The translations under genes and the position numbers were made by a program. Source: a virus. From it: a stretch of 64,000 nucleotides of DNA. The stretch lies in IMG/VR virus record IMGVR_UViG_3300035698_007208, positions 33,927 to 97,926 of that record. One strand, 5' to 3'. The stretch's first letter is position 1; the number at the start of each line of letters is the position of its first letter. The notes beneath the pieces are model-generated. The model saw only the letters and a list, made by a program, of their open reading frames with translations, did not search any database and was not told the DNA's origin. Of the stretch, positions 1-47,247 are shown piece after piece.

Positions 1-3000
1 TATTTAAATGATTTAGAAATTGAAGATGATGACCAGTTTGAATTTTATACTGGCATGCTACAAAGTAAAGGAACTATACCAAGTTTAACAAAAATTGCAG
101 CCAGCAACAGTATTATACAAGGATCAATGGTAGTATTTGATGAATGGGCTTTGCGCGTTGGCGATTTTGGTGATTTAGAGAATGAACAGAGTATTGAATT
201 GTCACTTGAAAAAGCAGACATAGTTCAAGATCCGCAATTAATTACGTTAGTGTTTCCAGAAGACACTATTGGTGTCATAGACGCAATTCGAGTACTTGAC
301 ACAAAGCACAAATATAACAGTGTGCCCTTATTAGTAATTGCTCAACCAACCTTAGCGCCAGCAATACAAGCAAGTGCAGAAGCATTATTGGACAATACTG
401 GCGTAATTTCAGGATTTAAAATTATAGAAGAAGGCAGCGGTTATGTTGAGCCAGTTGTAATTCAAGTAGTAGCTGGTGATTTAGTTGTATCAAATGTTGA
501 TGTGGCATTTTCAACTCCAGTTGCACAAAGCTTATTATATTTACCGTCTAACGTAGCTAGCTTAGGCCTAAGCAACATTCTATTATCAGACAACCTAAGT
601 GCTAACGGTATAATAAGTATTGATGTTAGTACAGCCACAGATATTGCTAATGTAGTATCAAGTATCAACACGTCAGCAGCCACCAACGCAAATGTGTCGG
701 CCCTAGTAGTTGAAAATACATATTTAGTTGGCAATATAGAATTGTCGCAAGTTATATTGCAAATTACAGGTAATGATTTTACATTAATTGAAGATGGGGT
801 TACACTTGCTAGTTTAGCAATCACGCCTGGTCGATACGAACCAAAACAACGACATAGTATTAGTACAGTAGACAATCACCCAATACTTGGTACTGGCGCG
901 ACTGAAGAAGGTAATATTACTGTTAAAATTAACAACATTGATCTTCCACATGCTGGCGGTGGAAATTGGGAGTATGATGCAGGGTCACGACAAAACAAGA
1001 GTTATATTATAGGCGACTCATCAGTTTCAGGTATTGATTTTGACACAAATGGAATTTACAGTGGCAATGTTACAATTCCATTAGTTACTCCAATTGATGC
1101 AAATAACACAGCAACCGAAGCTAATGTTTATCGCCATGCGAATGTATTTATAAACGGAACTGAAATTTTAAATTCTGGAGTAACAAGAGCATATGCTATA
1201 ACTACAACTGATTTGATTCTTTATAATGTTGATCAATTACCAGAAGGACAATTATTAGTTGGCGCAAATATAAGTATACACGAACATGCAACAGTTAACT
1301 TAGGAAATGCAGTAATAACTGACATACCGGGTGCAAAGTTAAGTATACGAACTGTAACAAACGATGATATTGCAATACTTACAAAAAGTAAAAGATTATT
1401 TGAAATAAGCGAAGATGCAAAAGGCGATGAAGCAATAGTAATTGACATTGATGACTCGTCACGATTCCTTAAGAAGCCGCTAGGAGTACGAGATAATAAA
1501 CTATGGCCTAGTATGTCAAGTGTTAACCATACTGGAATAACTGATGCTAGATATTTTAATATTCCTAATGCTGGGTATGTAAATAAAGCAAATGTTGATT
1601 TTAGATCATTTGATGTAAGCAGCATTGGTCAAATGTTTAGTGACCAAATTTCAATTCATCCAGAACAAAACGATTTAATACATGTCGCAGTAAGTGAAAA
1701 TTTAGACTGGAATGTTTACAAGTTAGCCGCAGCAAATACTGGCATTAGTTATGTAGAACAAGAAAACGATGACGCGACATCGTATTTATTTACTTCTAAT
1801 AGTTTGTTTGATTATACTGATAGTAATCAACTACAGGAAACAGATTTAAGTAGATATTTAGATTATCATCTTGTGTTAAAGAACTCACAACTAAATGAAA
1901 AATTTGTAGTATGGGTAAATGAGCAAGTAGTTGATAGCAAACAAGTAAGGTTTAGTAATATTAGTGCAACTGTTATGACGGAAGCTAGTGTTACAGAAAT
2001 TGGACCAGAGTCTAATTCTATACTTGCAATAAGCAATATTAATCCTGGAGTAAGTTCGTTTAGCACTGCAACAGCAACAGCCAATATAGACGGCAATGGC
2101 ACTGTACTTATTACAACTGACACATTTGGTGTAGAAGATGGCGATAGTGTTGCGTTCGGCGGCGCACTTGGTAATGCTAATCCGTTATGGGCAAACTCAT
2201 ATATAGTATCAAATGTAACAATTGGTACCTTTACAGTATTAGATGCAGCATTAACAAGTAACATTGATATTGCAAACCTTGTGTATTCTTATTATGGGAA
2301 AACACAAATTGAAAGTGTTGATCATGGATTAAGTTCAGGTGAAATGATTAAGATCGTAGCAGGTGTATATAGTGGTGCATATCTTGTTGAAAGTGCATCA
2401 GCAAATACGTTTGTTATTGATGCCCGTTACTTAAGTGGAGCGGCAACAACAGGTAATATATTGTTAGATAACGTTGTTATAACAGCAATTGGGCATGGAA
2501 TTGTAGATGCATATTCTGGTAAGCGAATAGCAGTACATAATGCAGACCCAAGGTACTATAACCAAGTTTACACGGTAGACAGTGTGACAGCTAATACTAT
2601 ATCAGTTAGTGGCATTTTTGCATTTGCTGATGTTGCAAATGTTATGGCAAATGCAGTGGTAACAACATTAGACCATGATGTTATTAGATTAAATAACAGT
2701 TCAATTAAAATTGACAATTTTAATAGTGTTGACGGCATTGTTGATAGCATTAACCAAGCAGCAGACTTAAGACGAGGATTTATTACCAGAGAAGGTAGTT
2801 TTAGTATGTCAATGCCAATGATGCGATCAAATAGATTGCCAGGCGGTATAACAAGTTCGCAAATAGCAGGTTCCATTCCTTACGTAACAAACTTAAATGG
2901 GTTTGACCAGTCTGGACTAGTTGTAACTGGTAATAGGACTATTAATCCAGATCTCACACGCAAAATTGGATTCAACAATGACGCGGTAGTGAGAGGACAA

Positions 3001-6000
3001 TCTCCTGCACCTAGGACAATAACGAGCGCCGCAAACCAAACACATTCGACTGTATTAAATGTAGGACCATACAGTCAAACGCTCAATAACCAATTAAACC
3101 CGTATGAGGTAAACATTGGGCCAATTAATATACCTAAAATTTCAATAATGGGTCCATTAGAAAATTTTAATCGATCAGTAAATAACCCATCACCTAATAC
3201 CGGTCTTGGGCAATTACCAAATAATAGTGGCGCACCAATTATTAATCCAGCAGCACTGATTGCATTACCAAGCGTGCAACTGTGTACACCTGCAATACCT
3301 GCAATTCCACCGCCGCGTCCACCAAAGCCTGCTGCACCAGCAGTGCCAGCAGTGCCAGCAATACCAGCAGTGCCAGCAATACCAGCATCGCCTGGCGTTC
3401 CTGAAGTGCCAGCAGTACCAGCAGTACCTGAAGTGCTTGCTATCCCAGGAACAGGAACAGGCAGTTGTATACAGTATAATAAATGGGAATACATTGAACA
3501 ATCTACTATGACATCAAATGTGGATGATACTTGGTACTTTATGATACCTATATGTGGTTCTGTTAAGATTATATATGATATGGATTCAGGGGAGGACATC
3601 CTTGATGCTTTTCAAATTACTACAAGGACAGCATTTGGTGGCACTCGTATGGGTGGAACAGATACTGGTGTAAGATTTGCAACAACAGCAGAAAAAGCAC
3701 AGTTATTAAAAGGAAACAACGGAGCCGCAGCTTCTTCCTTTACATCCAATTTACCAAAAGATTTTATTAAAACAAACCCAGGGTCAAAATTTTGCGGAGT
3801 TATTGAATTTGATTTTAAACCAACCGCAGGCTCGTATCTACGCATCGACGTTGATAAAAATAGCAGTATTTATAAATTTTTAATAGGCTACCCATCAACA
3901 GTAGGTGTAGTTAATCCGCAACAAAACACAAACCCAGGCCAGCCTGCAAACATACCACCATATAATGGTGTAGGTGTGGTTCCAAACATGAATACTATAC
4001 CTCAAACGCCAATAATACAGCCAGCAGGTACGCCAATCAATAAACTCAAAAAAGTAAATGGCGGTATGCGTGATGATGAATTTAATTTTAGAAATGGCGC
4101 CGGAGGCGGTAGGTATTCTAATGCCGGCGAGTATTATGTTTCTAATTTTAGTGGATTTAGTTCAGCACCAATGGCCGGTTTTGGATTTATTCCAAGTGTG
4201 TTTAAAAAGACAGTAAAAATAACTTCACCATTAAATGTTAACAGACATCAAGCGTTATCATCAGGCCGGTATGTCAATACAGTAGTGCATCGTGTTTCTG
4301 GTGGAATTATAATACCATTTGCAGATCGACTGCCAACTCCAATATTCATAGGAGCAAAGCCAATAAAAGGTTTAGATTTAATTAATGATCCATTATTTCG
4401 TTTGGCTGGTGACATAGCAAATGGACAAAATGTACATTTTAATTACAATCCAAGAAAAATAAGCAGTGCAAATTACACAATGGACAGTATTGGCTTACCA
4501 GCAAGCATTAATACGGTTACATCTAATGGCAGCATTGGTCCTAATGGCAGCATTAATCCGGTTACACCTAATGGCAGCATTGGTCCTAATGGCAGCATTG
4601 GTCCTAATGGCAGCATTGGTCCTAATGGCAAGGTTACTAGCACCACACCAGGAGTATTTGATTACACGCCATTAGCTGGTAACTTGCCTTCAACAGTATT
4701 GGGATCCCCACTTGTGAGTTTAGAATTAGCACCACCAACTATAGCAGACGCCATAGACTCTCCAGTTGATGTTGATAATGTAGAATTTAATAACATTCCT
4801 ATTATTACTCTTATTCCAAAAGTGAAGACAGTGGACGGATCATTTGTGCCAGCAGGTCCAACTTGTTATTGCCCGGTACATAGACCGTCGCCAAGCGTAA
4901 CAATTAGTCCATCTGATCTTATTGGTGCAACACCAGGCGATCAAATATTAATTAACAACACTGCTGTAACTATACAATCTAATGTAGATGCTACTATGAA
5001 TTCAATTGAATGTGCAATTGGTTCAGGGTTTACAACAATGCGCACAACAAGAGACTACAACGAAGCAATTAAGTTAATATCTTGCACAAATGCACCAATT
5101 ACATTTAAAGACGGATGCAGGGGTGGCGTTTATAAAGAAGTACTTGATTTTCATGTTGTAAAGTCGTTCAGTTTATCATCAACAAGCAATGCATTAGTAG
5201 TAGCAGCGTCAACTGGGTATGGTGCTGGTAATACAGCTACATTTGTTACTCCGTCAGTAACTTATACTAGATACAGTGAAGAAGGGGAAGTACAAGATAC
5301 ACTACCTCAAACTAGTACAACAACAACAGGTAGCATATTAACTGCTCAAACAGCACACACTGGCGGCGGCGGTTATTCTGTTGGCGATAGATTGCGTGTA
5401 GTTGGCGGCGTACCAATTGCTTCGCCATATGGTAGCATTACTGAGTTATGTATTGGCGATCCTGGATCAAATTATTCCGAAGCTGCTAATGTTAAAATTT
5501 ATATTGGTGACGGGTCCACTCCTGGAACAGGCGCAGTAGTTGGTAATGTAGTGCTTAATGCAAATGGTGGAATTTCAACTATTGAATTAATAAATTCAGG
5601 AATTGGATATGATGGCGCCCGCCAACCAACAGTAAGGGTTGTTGATATTGGTGCAGCAACAGCACCAACCATTGCAAGTCCAGCTAAAGTGTCAGTTAAA
5701 ATTGGAACAGAAACAATTGGACGCAATGGTTTATCAATAACATCTTATGGCCTTCCTGAGCGAGTTGCTAAGTTTGTAGTAACACAAATAGATGCTACTG
5801 GTGCAATTTTAGGATTACAGTCAATTGATAGGGGCATTTATAAACAGTTTCCAAGTGACTTAACGACTGGTATACCATTAGAATATGATGCTGTAAATTT
5901 AGGTGATGAATGGGGAGGAGAACTTCCACCATCAAGTTCAACAGGGCTGGGTGGGTTTGACCCACTTAACAACCATGCCACATTGCCATCGCCTGGTGGA

Positions 6001-33036: not shown

Positions 33037-34614
33037 ATGATTAGAACAATTTTAGGTGTCAGTTTTGGCTTCCACGATGCTGCTGTCTCTGTGGTTAACT
33101 ATGACACTGGTGAAATACTATTCGCATCACAAGCAGAAAGATATAGTAAAATAAAGAATGATCCGTGGTTACATGACGATCTAATTGCCAAAGCATTAAC
33201 TTACGGTAATCCAATTGTTATTGCGGTTAACGAAAACCCCTACCTCAAAAAACTAAGTCAGCTACGGTCTGGGCAGTTTCGAGAGGCATTACTTGGACCC
33301 ATGCCAAGCAAATGGCTTAATTTTTATCCCGAACTTAACGGAGTGCCGATTCAATATTACGGACATCATGAAAGTCATGCTGCTGCCGGATTATACGCAA
33401 TGGGATTAAATACGTTTGTTAAGACTGCTGGTAGAATGCGCTTTGGTATAGGGAGCGTATACGGTCCTGCTCCAATAGCAATAATGGTAATTGATGCGAT
33501 CGGTGAATTAGACACTGCGTCTATATGGAGTACAGACCATAACTTTAAACTTATTAAAGAAAGCTCAATCAAGTACCCAAACAGTTTGGGATTGTTTTAC
33601 ACTGCAATGACTCAGTATTTGGGGCTTAAGCCAATGGAAGACGAGTATATACTAATGGGCATGGCTGCTTATGGCAATAAAGAACGAGCATTTGCGCTGG
33701 CACAGCATTTAGGTAAAACATACTTTGTAGACGACAACAACAATCCTATGAAGGCTCGTGTAAATTTACATCGAGGATTACCTTATGACAGTGTGTTAGA
33801 AGAAGCAGATCAATTTGACATTGCACTAGCTACTCAAATTGAATTTGAAAGTCGCATGATGCGCTATGCTAAAGAAGCAAGCAACGTAAGCAATAACTTA
33901 ATTTATATGGGTGGGTGTGCATTGAATTGTGTTGCTAATACGCGACTGTCTGAACTATTTGATTCTGTGCAAATTATGCCTAATCCAGGAGATGCTGGTA
34001 GCTCATTGGGAGCCGCTGCATTGTCATACTTTAAACGAACTAATAAATTTTTGTCTGGATGGTCTCCTTATTTGGGACATGGCATTGTTGGAAAATATCC
34101 TGTTGATAAAGTGATCACTGCACTGTGTGAAAGTGGCATATGCGGAGTAGCAAATGGCAAGGCAGAATTTGGTCCTCGTGCATTAGGCAACCGCAGTTTG
34201 CTTGCTGACCCTAGAGATCCAACTATTAAAGATAGAGTAAATAAGATTAAGAAGCGGCAAGAATTTAGACCATTTGCTCCTATGATATTAGACAGTCACT
34301 TATCCCATGAGTTTGAAGTACCTTTGACTGCTAACCCAAACGAATTTTTATATATGCAACAAGCAGTAAAATGCAGAAACCCAGAGAAGTATCCGGCCAT
34401 AGTCCACGCAGACGGAACAAGTCGTGTACAAGTGGTTACCAAAGAGGCCCATCCTGAACTACATAAATTACTTTCAGAATGGAATAGAATAACTGGGTGT
34501 CCTATGTTGCTTAATACTAGCTTAAACATTAAAGGACAACCAATAGTAAATGATGAACAAGATGCTTATGATTTTGCAGAAAAGTACCAAGTTTCAGTGG
34601 TTACGTGTAAATAA
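33037..34614 (+). CDS. O-carbamoyltransferase (NodU/CmcH/TobZ family)
   Basis: HDAA, ERYS..K, HHESHAA, DAIGE, MGMAAYG, GGCALN, GDAGSS.G, EFGPRALGNRS, RPFAP, HADGTSRVQ, LNTSLN. Confidence 0.92.
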   Translation: MIRTILGVSFGFHDAAVSVVNYDTGEILFASQAERYSKIKNDPWLHDDLIAKALTYGNPIVIAVNENPYLKKLSQLRSGQFREALLGPMPSKWLNFYPELNGVPIQYYGHHESHAAAGLYAMGLNTFVKTAGRMRFGIGSVYGPAPIAIMVIDAIGELDTASIWSTDHNFKLIKESSIKYPNSLGLFYTAMTQYLGLKPMEDEYILMGMAAYGNKERAFALAQHLGKTYFVDDNNNPMKARVNLHRGLPYDSVLEEADQFDIALATQIEFESRMMRYAKEASNVSNNLIYMGGCALNCVANTRLSELFDSVQIMPNPGDAGSSLGAAALSYFKRTNKFLSGWSPYLGHGIVGKYPVDKVITALCESGICGVANGKAEFGPRALGNRSLLADPRDPTIKDRVNKIKKRQEFRPFAPMILDSHLSHEFEVPLTANPNEFLYMQQAVKCRNPEKYPAIVHADGTSRVQVVTKEAHPELHKLLSEWNRITGCPMLLNTSLNIKGQPIVNDEQDAYDFAEKYQVSVVTCK

Positions 34615-44768: not shown

Positions 44769-45332
44769 TTAACGTACATTAATATTAATTGTAATCATTT
44801 CACCAACGTTAGGTGCAGTATACCGTTTAACTGTGTACTGTTGGCCTTGTATTTCTATTAAAACATTGAAGTATTGTAGCTCATCTTCAATTTGCGGAAC
44901 ATTTACCCAACTAACAACTTCACGACAATGGAGGTTGGAATTTTGGCGGTTACGGGATGATTGGTTTCCCACACTATTACCTAACAGTCCACCTAGCACC
45001 ATTGCAATGTCAGTGCCACTGCCACCGCCAATTTGACTCCCTACTCCAATGCCAATTGCAGTGCCTATTAGTCCTTGGGGACTGCCAAATAATCCGTTAG
45101 ACCCACGCTCAATAAGCCCATCACTGCGCCTTGCTGTTCTAACGTTGTCACAGATGGTTTCCTGCGCAGCAACCCGCTCGTAACGTACTACACTGGTATA
45201 AATAGGGTCTACTCTTAATACAAGGCCTTTATTTTGGCCGGCACTAGCTGAAGCAGGAATGGCAATTGTTACTATAGTGACTATTGTAAAACTTAATATT
45301 CCAATAAATCTGTTAAACTCTTTTATATACAT
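44769..45332 (-). CDS. Exported glycine-zipper 2TM protein (YcfJ-like)
   Basis: Signal peptide; GTAIGIGVGSQIGGGSG..IA.VLGGLLGNSVG; paired Cys. Confidence 0.8.
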   Translation of the reverse strand: MYIKEFNRFIGILSFTIVTIVTIAIPASASAGQNKGLVLRVDPIYTSVVRYERVAAQETICDNVRTARRSDGLIERGSNGLFGSPQGLIGTAIGIGVGSQIGGGSGTDIAMVLGGLLGNSVGNQSSRNRQNSNLHCREVVSWVNVPQIEDELQYFNVLIEIQGQQYTVKRYTAPNVGEMITININVR

Positions 45333-45389: not shown

Positions 45390-45449
45390 CACTAAAAATC
45401 TTAGCAAAACAGTAAGTCACCAGTCTTATATACATTATATTTGTGCTTG

Positions 45450-45457
45450 TATAAATA
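45450..45457 (+). promoter_or_regulatory. T4-type late promoter TATAAATA; a second ATAAATA at 45526-45532
   Basis: Exact consensus heading the + strand island. Confidence 0.7.
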
Positions 45458-45483
45458 CATATGAAGGCAACAAGTCTTCACCA

Positions 45484-45519
45484 ACTGAATTAAACAATTA
45501 AGCGTCTATTCAGTACGCT
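45484..45519. ncRNA. Pseudoknot-forming motif, copy 1
   Basis: ACTGAAT/ATTCAGT interleaved with AGCGT/ACGCT. Confidence 0.6.
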
Positions 45520-45537
45520 GTAAAGATAAATAATATT

Positions 45538-45578
45538 ACAGATTTTAAACATTAGCCTGCTAATCTGTCGGCCTAACT
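45538..45578. ncRNA. Pseudoknot-forming motif, copy 2
   Basis: ACAGATT/AATCTGT interleaved with bulged TTAGCC/GGCCTAA. Confidence 0.5.
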
Positions 45579-45580
45579 AT

Positions 45581-46375
45581 ATGATATTACCTTACGTTTA
45601 CAAACTTACTAATCGTTTATCTGGCCAATTCTATTTTGGATATAGAGCCGCGAATAAATTCCCATCAAATCAAGATCTAGGCACGTTTTATTTCACATCA
45701 GCACCAAAAGTTAAAGAAAACTTCGATGAATTCGATACACAGATTATAGCTGAGTTTTATGATGGGAAAGACGCTTGGCGATTTGAGCAAACACTTATAG
45801 AAGAATACAGTAAAGATCCATTAATGTTAAATAATAGCTTTTTCAAAAGTGACAGTAAAGTGTTCTCGACTGCGGGCAGACCGAGAACAGAAGAAGAAAA
45901 ACAGAGTATACGAGAAAAGAAGTTAGGGATAAAGCGTGATTATTCTCCAACACCTGAAACAATAGCGAAAATGCTAAAATCCAGGAAATGGTACAAAACA
46001 TCAAAAGAAACAGCAGCTAAAGGAGTAGCGACAAGAAAGCAAAACGGAAAGGAATAGTGCTCAGATGATACTAGGAAGAAAATATCAGAAGCCAAAACGT
46101 CATTCTACAAGACAGAAGAAGGGAAAAATTGCGGGTCTGGTGTACCAAAAGGCACTGTACCGTGGAACAAGGGGAAAACAGGAGGCAAGGCTTGGAACAA
46201 AGGTCTTAAAACAGGACCGCAATCTGCTGAACTAAGAGCAAAGAGGTCGGCGAGCAGAAAAGGAAAACGTATATATAACAACCCGGAAACGGGAGAAACG
46301 GTTTTTTGTTTACCAGAAAATTGTCCTAATAATTGGATTATTGGGAAATTTAAAAATAACAAAACTACAGACTAA
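45581..46375 (+). pseudogene. GIY-YIG-like homing endonuclease with NUMOD3-like repeats, interrupted by an in-frame TAG at 46055-46057
   Basis: PYVYKLTN..GQFYFG.R...YFTS, E..LI. The frame continues past the TAG (CSDDTRKKISEA..PWNKG..AWNKG..YNNPETG) to TAA 46373-46375, 264 codons in total. Confidence 0.75.
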
Positions 46376-46403
46376 TAAAATCAGTTAGCTAGTCTGTCTA
46401 ACT
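46367..46403. ncRNA. Pseudoknot-forming motif, copy 3
   Basis: ACAGACTA/TAGTCTGT interleaved with AGTTAG/CTAACT. Confidence 0.6.
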
Positions 46404-46419
46404 ACAATAGGAAATATTA

Positions 46420-47217
46420 ATGATGGCGTACAAAAAGAAGCTGGTAGCAGCTATAAAATCTAACGGAAAGATACTTCGAGAATTTGGCGAAGCAGTCTAC
46501 GTACCATTCGGTACCGAATATTCAATCTTACTTAAGAACTTAGACAATCGCAGAGTCGTGGCTCGTATTTTTATTGATGGAGAAGATGTTACTTCAGGCG
46601 GCGTAGTAATTGGACCTAAGAATCAAATTGACTTTGAACGGTCACTTATTACCGGCAGCATGGATAAGGGCAATAAATTTAAATTTATTGAGCGTTCGAA
46701 TAAGGTAGAAAAACATAGAGGCATTAAGCTTGAAGACGGACTTGTCCGTGTTGAGTATGAATTTGAAAAAGAAATAGAATATAAACTACCAGTACAATCC
46801 GAATATATACCATGGAATAAGATGTATAATATTACATCAACTTTTGGATCAGCCAGTTCAGGTAAAATAGGATCAAATGTATTACGATCATCAACTACCA
46901 AAAGTGACCGCCAGCAACCAAATCAGGAAATATATACGGCAAGTGTTGCTACTGCTGCTGTACCACAGAATGAAACAGGCGTAACAGTGGCAGGCAGCGA
47001 GAGTGATCAGAAGTTTGTAACTGTAAACTGGTTTCCAACTGAATTAGAAACCCATACTATTATTTTAAATTTGTTTGGTGAAACTGAGGATAATAAGGTA
47101 ATACGTGAACCTATTACCACAAATGTAAAGCAAGACTGCTTGTCGTGTGGCACTAAAAATAAGATTAAATCAAAGTTTTGTAGTGAATGCGGTACAGGAT
47201 TAGAACTTTTTGCGTAA
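46420..47217 (+). CDS. Hypothetical protein with C-terminal zinc ribbon
   Basis: beta-rich N-terminal domain; CLSC...CSEC at the C-terminus; SD AGGA. Confidence 0.8.
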   Translation: MMAYKKKLVAAIKSNGKILREFGEAVYVPFGTEYSILLKNLDNRRVVARIFIDGEDVTSGGVVIGPKNQIDFERSLITGSMDKGNKFKFIERSNKVEKHRGIKLEDGLVRVEYEFEKEIEYKLPVQSEYIPWNKMYNITSTFGSASSGKIGSNVLRSSTTKSDRQQPNQEIYTASVATAAVPQNETGVTVAGSESDQKFVTVNWFPTELETHTIILNLFGETEDNKVIREPITTNVKQDCLSCGTKNKIKSKFCSECGTGLELFA

Positions 47218-47221
47218 ATAA

Positions 47222-47247
47222 TTGAATGGGGCTTCGGCCCCATTCAA
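47222..47247. terminator. Bidirectional terminator hairpin with cUUCGg loop
   Basis: TTGAATGGGGC-TTCG-GCCCCATTCAA between convergent genes. Confidence 0.85.

Follow-up and report, generated by a model that had tools for sequence, protein, structure and literature searches.

Introduction

Few regulatory RNAs of large phages are understood experimentally. The pseudoknot in the leader of bacteriophage T4 gene 32 is possibly the only viral pseudoknot that serves translational autoregulation; it is located 67 nt upstream of the start codon, and the region between the two contains an unstructured A/U-rich operator overlapping with the ribosome-binding site (PMC3014915). In Escherichia coli, the rpsO mRNA, encoding ribosomal protein S15, carries a pseudoknot operator at its ribosome-binding region, through which the protein controls initiation (PMC3014915). 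Here, we describe an element in a 64,000-nt stretch of viral DNA (IMG/VR record IMGVR_UViG_3300035698_007208, positions 33,927 to 97,926; hereafter, the window), which is part of a contig of 97.9 kb that is 27% complete. The element is a gene-specific, covarying, interleaved two-helix RNA located immediately 5' of the Shine-Dalgarno sequence (SD) of a late gene encoding an uncharacterized zinc (Zn)-ribbon protein, and it is present in three copies in the window, around a GIY-YIG homing endonuclease gene. In the following, the two helices are called S1 and S2; L1 is the linker between their 5' strands, L2 the loop between S2-5' and S1-3', and L3 the junction between S1-3' and S2-3'. Positions are those of the window and refer to the plus strand unless stated otherwise.

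The closest known system is the gene 32 leader of phages T4, T2 and RB69, which resembles the present element in having a small two-helix pseudoknot architecture in the 5' leader of a single gene of T4-related phages, an A/U-rich UUAA(A) sequence nearby, and a zinc protein as the regulated product. However, the gene described here is not a homologue of genes for single-stranded DNA-binding proteins (its product has a Zn-ribbon Pfam match and a predicted immunoglobulin (Ig)-like fold), the element ends 3–5 nt before the SD instead of lying 67 nt upstream of the start, and the loops are arranged differently, with a long L1, an L2 of 2 nt and an L3 of 0 nt. The rpsO pseudoknot takes in the SD and the start codon, whereas both lie outside the fold here, and the two elements show no relation in sequence or in Rfam. 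The preQ1-I riboswitch resembles the element in its size (~34–40 nt), in having a pseudoknot topology and in lying at the region where translation starts; it differs in that no Rfam match is obtained here, the classical loop order with its A-rich 3' loop is lacking (L3 = 0), the SD lies outside the stems, and the downstream gene is unrelated to queuosine. As for the endonuclease, free-standing GIY-YIG genes of the Seg type in T4-like phages have late promoters and stand behind regulatory hairpins. The gene in the window is likewise an intergenic GIY-YIG gene just upstream of a conserved gene, but its insertion appears to have duplicated a structured leader RNA, a copy of which precedes the endonuclease gene as well as the host gene. 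We know of no described case of such a duplication by an endonuclease insertion. Literature searches gave no description of this leader; a 2023 catalogue, which contains 8,495 unnamed candidate RNAs from IMG/VR, may list it (PMC10690425).

Occurrence Upstream of Zn-Ribbon Genes

The Zn-ribbon gene of the window (46420..47217) encodes a product of 265 aa, a late protein that is conserved in XacN1-like jumbo phages. A DNA similarity search of the region against a phage collection gave no match, and neither did a scan of viral contigs with the single protein; a scan with a protein profile of the gene product did give loci, of which 80 were fetched. The motif was found upstream of the homologous gene in nearly all of these 80 loci, which had been located via the protein alone. 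An earlier reading of the window from its letters only (hereafter, the original prediction) had tied the three copies to this gene, and the homologous leaders bear out that association. The element is present in ~120 distinct leaders, including those of the cultured phages XacN1, Xoo-sp13 and RAS14, and is therefore directly testable. In almost every homologue, the 120 nt upstream of the gene have a common layout, consisting of a NNTAAATA box, a short hairpin, the series AC-NNN-CT/UUAA.../S2-5'/UU/AG-NNN-GU/S2-3', and then GUAAA, followed by the SD and the start codon.

To test S2 independently, viral contigs were scanned with a pattern that fixed only S1, TTAA and TT. In each of the 80 matches listed, the five bases preceding TT paired completely with the five that follow S1-3', with many different S2 sequences, and a Zn-ribbon homologue began 13–39 nt downstream in 79 of 80. 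A covariance model (R1) gave one significant match per genome in five complete or near-complete genomes of 309–385 kb, always before the Zn-ribbon gene. The single match in each genome, at this very gene, shows that the element is specific to the Zn-ribbon gene. The neighbouring genes vary: in the Xanthomonas jumbo phages XacN1 (L081, 213-3316) and Xoo-sp13 (L082), the Zn-ribbon gene is directly downstream of the tail sheath gene, whereas its upstream neighbour in the window is a divergent gene for a glycine-zipper protein, indicating that the leader is conserved while synteny is not. The XacN1 paper does not mention ORF366. Two loci (L062 and L063, ~2880–3300) contain a homologue whose preceding 120 nt hold no pseudoknot; the sequence upstream looks coding, and the protein may thus be fused to another or extended at its N terminus.

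Covariation of the Two Helices

Covariation was measured as the share of alignment cells forming standard pairs, and the 3' partners were slid by 1–3 columns as controls. In alignment A2, which comprises 62 leaders located via the protein, 98.2% of the cells were paired, as compared with 21–45% in the slid controls, and 9 of the 12 pairs showed changes on both sides. Similarly, 99.7% of the cells were paired in alignment A4, made of 99 pattern matches, against 16–48% in its controls, and covariation was seen in all five S2 pairs. At least 10 variants of S1 and at least 40 variants of S2 occur across the 120 distinct leaders. The rare unpaired cells come from a single misaligned row and a single degenerate copy; in A4, there are three of them, against ~10 G.U/U.G cells. 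The element is short, its support from covariation is extremely strong, and the covarying interleaved RNA that had been proposed from three copies stands, both stems being affected. The original prediction had considered the functional strand to be undecidable from Watson–Crick pairs. With the larger set of leaders it can be assigned: the G.U pairs, the constant orientation and the fixed distance to the SD place the structure on the sense (mRNA) strand.

These data bear directly on the possibility that the element acts at the DNA level, as a protein-bound inverted repeat or as the recognition site of a homing endonuclease, and does not function as RNA. In three loci, the endonuclease gene lies in or beside the element (see below), and homing endonucleases target conserved sequences, so that homing may be directed to the DNA of the element as well. 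However, a protein-binding site would not require pairing to be kept while the sequence changes, nor would it account for G.U pairs on the sense strand only, and well over 100 loci carry the element without any endonuclease. We consider an exclusive function as DNA to be extremely improbable.

Geometry and Proposed Fold

The geometry of the element was constant in all 120 leaders: S1 has 7 bp, S2 has 5 bp (rarely 6), L2 has 2 nt (UU in 116 leaders and CU in the other 4) and L3 has none. L1 is A/U-rich, begins with UUAA and measures 8–15 nt, never less than 8 nt. The element has a length of 36–43 nt. The unpaired nucleotides that are conserved are UUAA, UU and GUAAA. The two covariation-supported helices are interleaved in the ABab order of H-type pseudoknots. 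The loops of a classical H-type pseudoknot, namely a short loop 1 over the deep groove of stem 2 and a loop 3 of several nt over the shallow groove of stem 1, were not found, L3 being 0 in 120 of 120 leaders; textbook H-type stacking is impossible for this reason, and a zero-length L3 combined with a loop of 2 nt that spans 7 bp is uncommon among natural pseudoknots. Under the classical rule reported by Pleij and co-workers, one or two nucleotides are able to cross the deep groove of 6–7 bp. We propose that the continuous strand formed by S1-3' and S2-3' would stack the helices coaxially, in an H-type topology with permuted loop lengths, by our reasoning the only sterically plausible arrangement. 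In such a fold, the 2 nt of L2 would bridge the deep groove of S1 with its 7 bp, while the long L1 would return along the stack over ~12 bp, in agreement with its minimum of 8 nt.

An alternative is a bistable switch, in which S1 and S2 are mutually exclusive hairpins toggled by a factor, by temperature or by the order of co-transcriptional folding, and no pseudoknot forms. In accordance with this, the S1-3' strand lies wholly within the loop of S2, and the lack of a linker between S1-3' and S2-3' excludes the classical H-type geometry; in addition, the isolated hairpins are close in energy (−7.1 kcal/mol for S1 and −5 to −6.5 kcal/mol for S2, calculated with ViennaRNA, which considers nested structures only). 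However, the invariance of L2, L3, S1 and S2 in ~120 leaders is what a fixed three-dimensional fold needs and a switch does not, and the SD and the start codon are covered in neither state, so that a switch would have no obvious output. Since the short loops are strictly invariant, a single compact fold is favored, and we regard the switch as rather unlikely.

Comparison with Known RNA Families

Rfam 15 gave no match on the element at E values up to 10 in the window and up to 5 in a set of nine loci whose copies are canonical; this covers the covariance models of preQ1, SAM-II, fluoride, pistol and twister, among other families, as well as the ribozymes, and nothing supports a ribozyme reading. 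The original prediction, which had recognized no Rfam family in the motif, agrees with this outcome. A riboswitch reading, in which the element would bind a metabolite or an ion as an aptamer of very small size and control translation of the late gene, would be in keeping with the size of the element and its position adjacent to the SD, both of which are like those of small pseudoknots of the preQ1-I type, and with the conservation of several unpaired nucleotides. On the other hand, none of the Rfam riboswitch models matches even in these permissive searches, the gene encodes an Ig-fold/Zn-ribbon protein that is not an enzyme and has no metabolic connection, the SD is outside the fold, and triplex contacts that stabilize the fold could by themselves account for the conserved loop bases. 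Ligand sensing of this kind therefore appears very unlikely to us.

The Three Copies in the Window and the Endonuclease Insertion

The pattern ACNGANT-N17-ANTCNGT fits all three copies in the window, each of which has a 7-bp S1, a loop of exactly 17 nt, and an S2 interleaved with S1. No fourth instance was found in the 64-kb window or in the whole 97.9-kb contig, by this pattern or by the covariance model. The generic pattern of interleaved 7-bp and 5-bp stems has five unrelated, AT-rich instances elsewhere in the contig, and because such interleaving is not rare in this AT-rich DNA, the three copies alone are modest evidence; what takes them beyond chance is the sequence and spacing that they share and, most of all, the comparison with other leaders. 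All sequences and positions in the original prediction (the three copies, the hairpin, and the two promoter-like boxes discussed below) were present.

Copy 1 (45484..45519; covariance model score, 41.2 bits) consists of S1 at 45484-45490/45508-45514, L1 at 45491-45500, S2 at 45501-45505/45515-45519 and an L2 of CT at 45506-45507. Upstream of it are TATAAATA (45450..45457), which is the T4-type late promoter box for the leader of the Zn-ribbon gene, and the hairpin TGAAGGC-AACAA-GTCTTCA (45462..45480), which, judged by sequence and folding, is probably the 5' terminus of the late transcript. The closest relative free of the endonuclease (L186; 63% protein identity) has a single leader that is almost identical to copy 1 and collinear with 45440-45539 of the window, through the promoter, the hairpin and copy 1 up to the start codon. 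This collinearity as far as the start codon identifies copy 1 as the ancestral leader. Behind it lies GTAAAGATAAATAATATT (45520..45537), which is what remains of the former SD, its spacer and the start codon, where L186 has GTATAAGGGAATAATAATG at the same place in the alignment; as compared with L186, the SD has decayed from AAGGG to AAGAT and the start codon from ATG to TTA. Late-type promoters had been proposed before both copy 1 and copy 2. The box at 45450 is kept in L186, whereas the ATAAATA at 45526-45532 may not be a real second promoter, since it lies within this decayed SD and spacer.

Copy 2 (45538..45578; 36.5 bits) is located directly 5' of the start codon of the endonuclease. Its S1 is intact (45538-45544/45562-45568), and its S2 is degenerate in the register of the family, reading GCCTG/CGGCC with a C.C mismatch. 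The bulged stem TTAGCC/GGCCTAA that had been put forward as its second helix needs loop lengths other than those of the family, and we do not retain it.

The endonuclease gene (45581..46375) is in one frame, is Seg-like, and matches PHROG 314 (E 1.2e-10), with weak NUMOD3 and HNH-tail matches in its distal part. This homology, the free-standing intergenic location, and the lack of the gene at this site in the closest relative identify it as a GIY-YIG homing endonuclease gene. The frame is interrupted by an in-frame TAG at 46055-46057 and is open otherwise, so the gene is not an intact reading frame; the TAG could mean that the gene is a nonsense pseudogene, that the codon is suppressed or that an error was made in sequencing, and ARAGORN found no tRNA genes in the window. 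The TAA stop codon (46373-46375) overlaps S1-5' of copy 3.

Copy 3 (46367..46403; 21.4 bits) occupies the canonical position before the Zn-ribbon gene. Both of its stems are perfect, with S1 at 46367-46373/46391-46397 (an eighth pair is possible) and S2 at 46384-46388/46398-46402 (a sixth pair is possible), and it has no promoter of its own. Its L1 is without UUAA because the stop codons of the endonuclease sit there. The SD of the Zn-ribbon gene, AGGA, is at 46409..46412; the distances from S2-3' to the SD (6 nt) and to the ATG (17 nt) are inside the range of the family. A block comprising copy 2, the GIY-YIG gene, copy 3 and a new SD is located exactly at the old start codon, and we suggest that copy 3 now serves the Zn-ribbon gene while copy 2 decays.

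The association of an endonuclease cassette with the motif, which had been noted for the window, recurs in two more loci with independent insertions. In L041 and L152, a GIY-YIG gene unrelated to that of the window lies in the same leader and the copies of the motif are duplicated. The endonuclease of L041 has no BLASTP similarity to the enzyme of the window and matches PHROG 314 with an E value of 2.8e-4. L152 (reverse strand, ~1540-2300 after reorientation) contains a promoter, a hairpin, a pseudoknot, AATAAATA, a second, degenerate pseudoknot and a homologue of the L041 GIY-YIG gene. The SD of the endonuclease is within a hairpin in both L041 and L152. Each time an insertion separated leader and gene, a new copy of the element was retained right beside the SD, suggesting that proximity to the ribosome-binding site is what matters. 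That an intact copy has repeatedly been retained there is the strongest argument for a local action on translation initiation.

Transcription Signals and Spacing to the Ribosome-Binding Site

Among the 119 leaders with a recognizable SD, the SD starts 3–5 nt after S2-3' in 92, and S2-3' ends 13–18 nt before the start codon in 99. Further upstream, a NNTAAATA box was present in 85 of the 120 leaders, mostly 23–27 nt before S1; the TATAAATA-like −10 box, its suitable distance and its conservation in relatives are those of a T4-type late promoter. A 5' hairpin of at least 4 bp, whose stem sequences differ, occupies this position in 75 of these 85 leaders. The loops of the 5' hairpins in the leaders L001-L080 are enriched in GG-containing pentamers (AUGGG, AUGGU, AAGGU, GUGGU, AUAGG), and the loop of the hairpin in the window is AACAA.

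A distant clade of 18 loci (L090, L104, L106, L121, L150, L176 and others) lacks the TAAATA box and the local hairpin. In this clade, the 5' end of the leader is complementary over 12–20 nt to sequence just past the stop codon (z −4 to −12). A TAGAACA-like motif, perhaps another type of promoter, is common to the upstream regions of these loci. Corresponding 5'-3' end pairing was looked for in the clade of the window and rejected (median z −0.3; none was seen in the window). The two clades share both the pseudoknot and the distance that separates it from the SD. Found with both types of promoter and 5' end, the element is evidently independent of transcription signals. We also rejected a terminator or attenuator, as no U-tract follows either stem.

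The protected 5' ends raise the possibility that the element serves the stability or processing of the mRNA, by blocking or directing a ribonuclease or by marking a processing site, and so protects the coding part. The leader 5' end is protected in every clade, by a hairpin or by 5'-3' pairing, pointing to strong selection on mRNA stability, and copy 3 lies within a long read-through transcript, where a barrier or a processing site would be useful. However, a nuclease barrier would not need the tight, constant distance to the SD, and Rfam shows no likeness to known ribozymes or exonuclease-resistant RNAs. We therefore hold this explanation to be unlikely.

The Zn-Ribbon Protein

The only Pfam match of the 265-aa protein is a C-terminal Zn_Ribbon_1. 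It has ~2000 homologues in metagenomic phage contigs, many of them 200–360 kb in length, and is 33–37% identical to proteins of the cultured jumbo phages XacN1, Xoo-sp13, RAS14 and CM1. A first AlphaFold model on a shallower alignment had a predicted local distance difference test (pLDDT) score of 45; a model on 99 sequences reached a pLDDT of 81 and a predicted template modeling (pTM) score of 0.71. According to the latter model, the fold is an Ig-like beta-sandwich (residues 3-120 and 185-229) with a disordered insert and a C-terminal Zn ribbon. Searches with Foldseek and VIA-align found generic Ig/MSP-like sandwiches only (best Z 7.1), a profile search against PDB sequences gave weak Zn-ribbon matches only, and the ESM Atlas returned hypothetical proteins only.

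Proposed Role in Translation Initiation

The fold ends 3–5 nt before the SD, and in copy 3 it stays beside the SD even though the promoter is ~940 nt away. These positions argue for an action in cis on initiation, and the function of the element is most likely the cis control of translation initiation. The element could serve as the operator of a repressor, a role that the Zn-ribbon product might itself play, by analogy with T4 gp32; alternatively, it may be a fixed structure that sets the access of ribosomes. Taken together, the explanation that we consider best, and regard as reasonably probable as a whole, is that S1 and S2 coexist in a compact pseudoknot, that this pseudoknot controls translation initiation in cis, and that the locus has the insertion history described above.

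Several points weigh against this explanation. S1 and S2 alone are nearly iso-energetic, as they would be in a bistable switch. A zero-length L3 is incompatible with classical H-type stacking, and the geometry that we propose instead is reached by reasoning only. Because the SD is outside both stems and a search for an anti-SD was negative, no direct mechanism of sequestration is visible; the candidate anti-SD, CUUU at the S1-5'/L1 junction, which would pair with the SD in an opened knot, was rejected, with a mean duplex energy of −2.73 kcal/mol as compared with −2.92 kcal/mol for shuffled tails. Locus L152 has two copies and an endonuclease gene, and no Zn-ribbon homologue in the remaining 2.6 kb downstream. 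Finally, the modeled fold of the protein shows no sign of RNA binding beyond the generic Zn ribbon.

We raise, as a tentative possibility, that the element represents a new class of very small, permuted H-type pseudoknots that senses a small molecule or the Zn-ribbon protein and sets the translation of a late gene found throughout a large clade of jumbo phages, its conserved DNA doubling as the site at which two or more unrelated GIY-YIG endonucleases home. The leader would mark a widespread, uncharacterized late protein as one that is tightly controlled by the phage, and the endonuclease insertions offer a natural experiment on the separation of leader and gene.

Other Features of the Region

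The late-promoter octamer TATAAATA was found 5 times in the window, as compared with 12 ± 3.5 occurrences expected from shuffles, and appears to be avoided. A further copy (45197-45204, plus strand) is located inside the minus-strand gene for the glycine-zipper protein. At the other end of the locus, a perfect 11-bp hairpin with a UUCG tetraloop (47222..47247, assigned to neither strand) follows right after the stop codon of the Zn-ribbon gene. It stands between the convergent Zn-ribbon gene and a minus-strand gene ending at 47244, and, to judge from its sequence, it is likely a bidirectional terminator.

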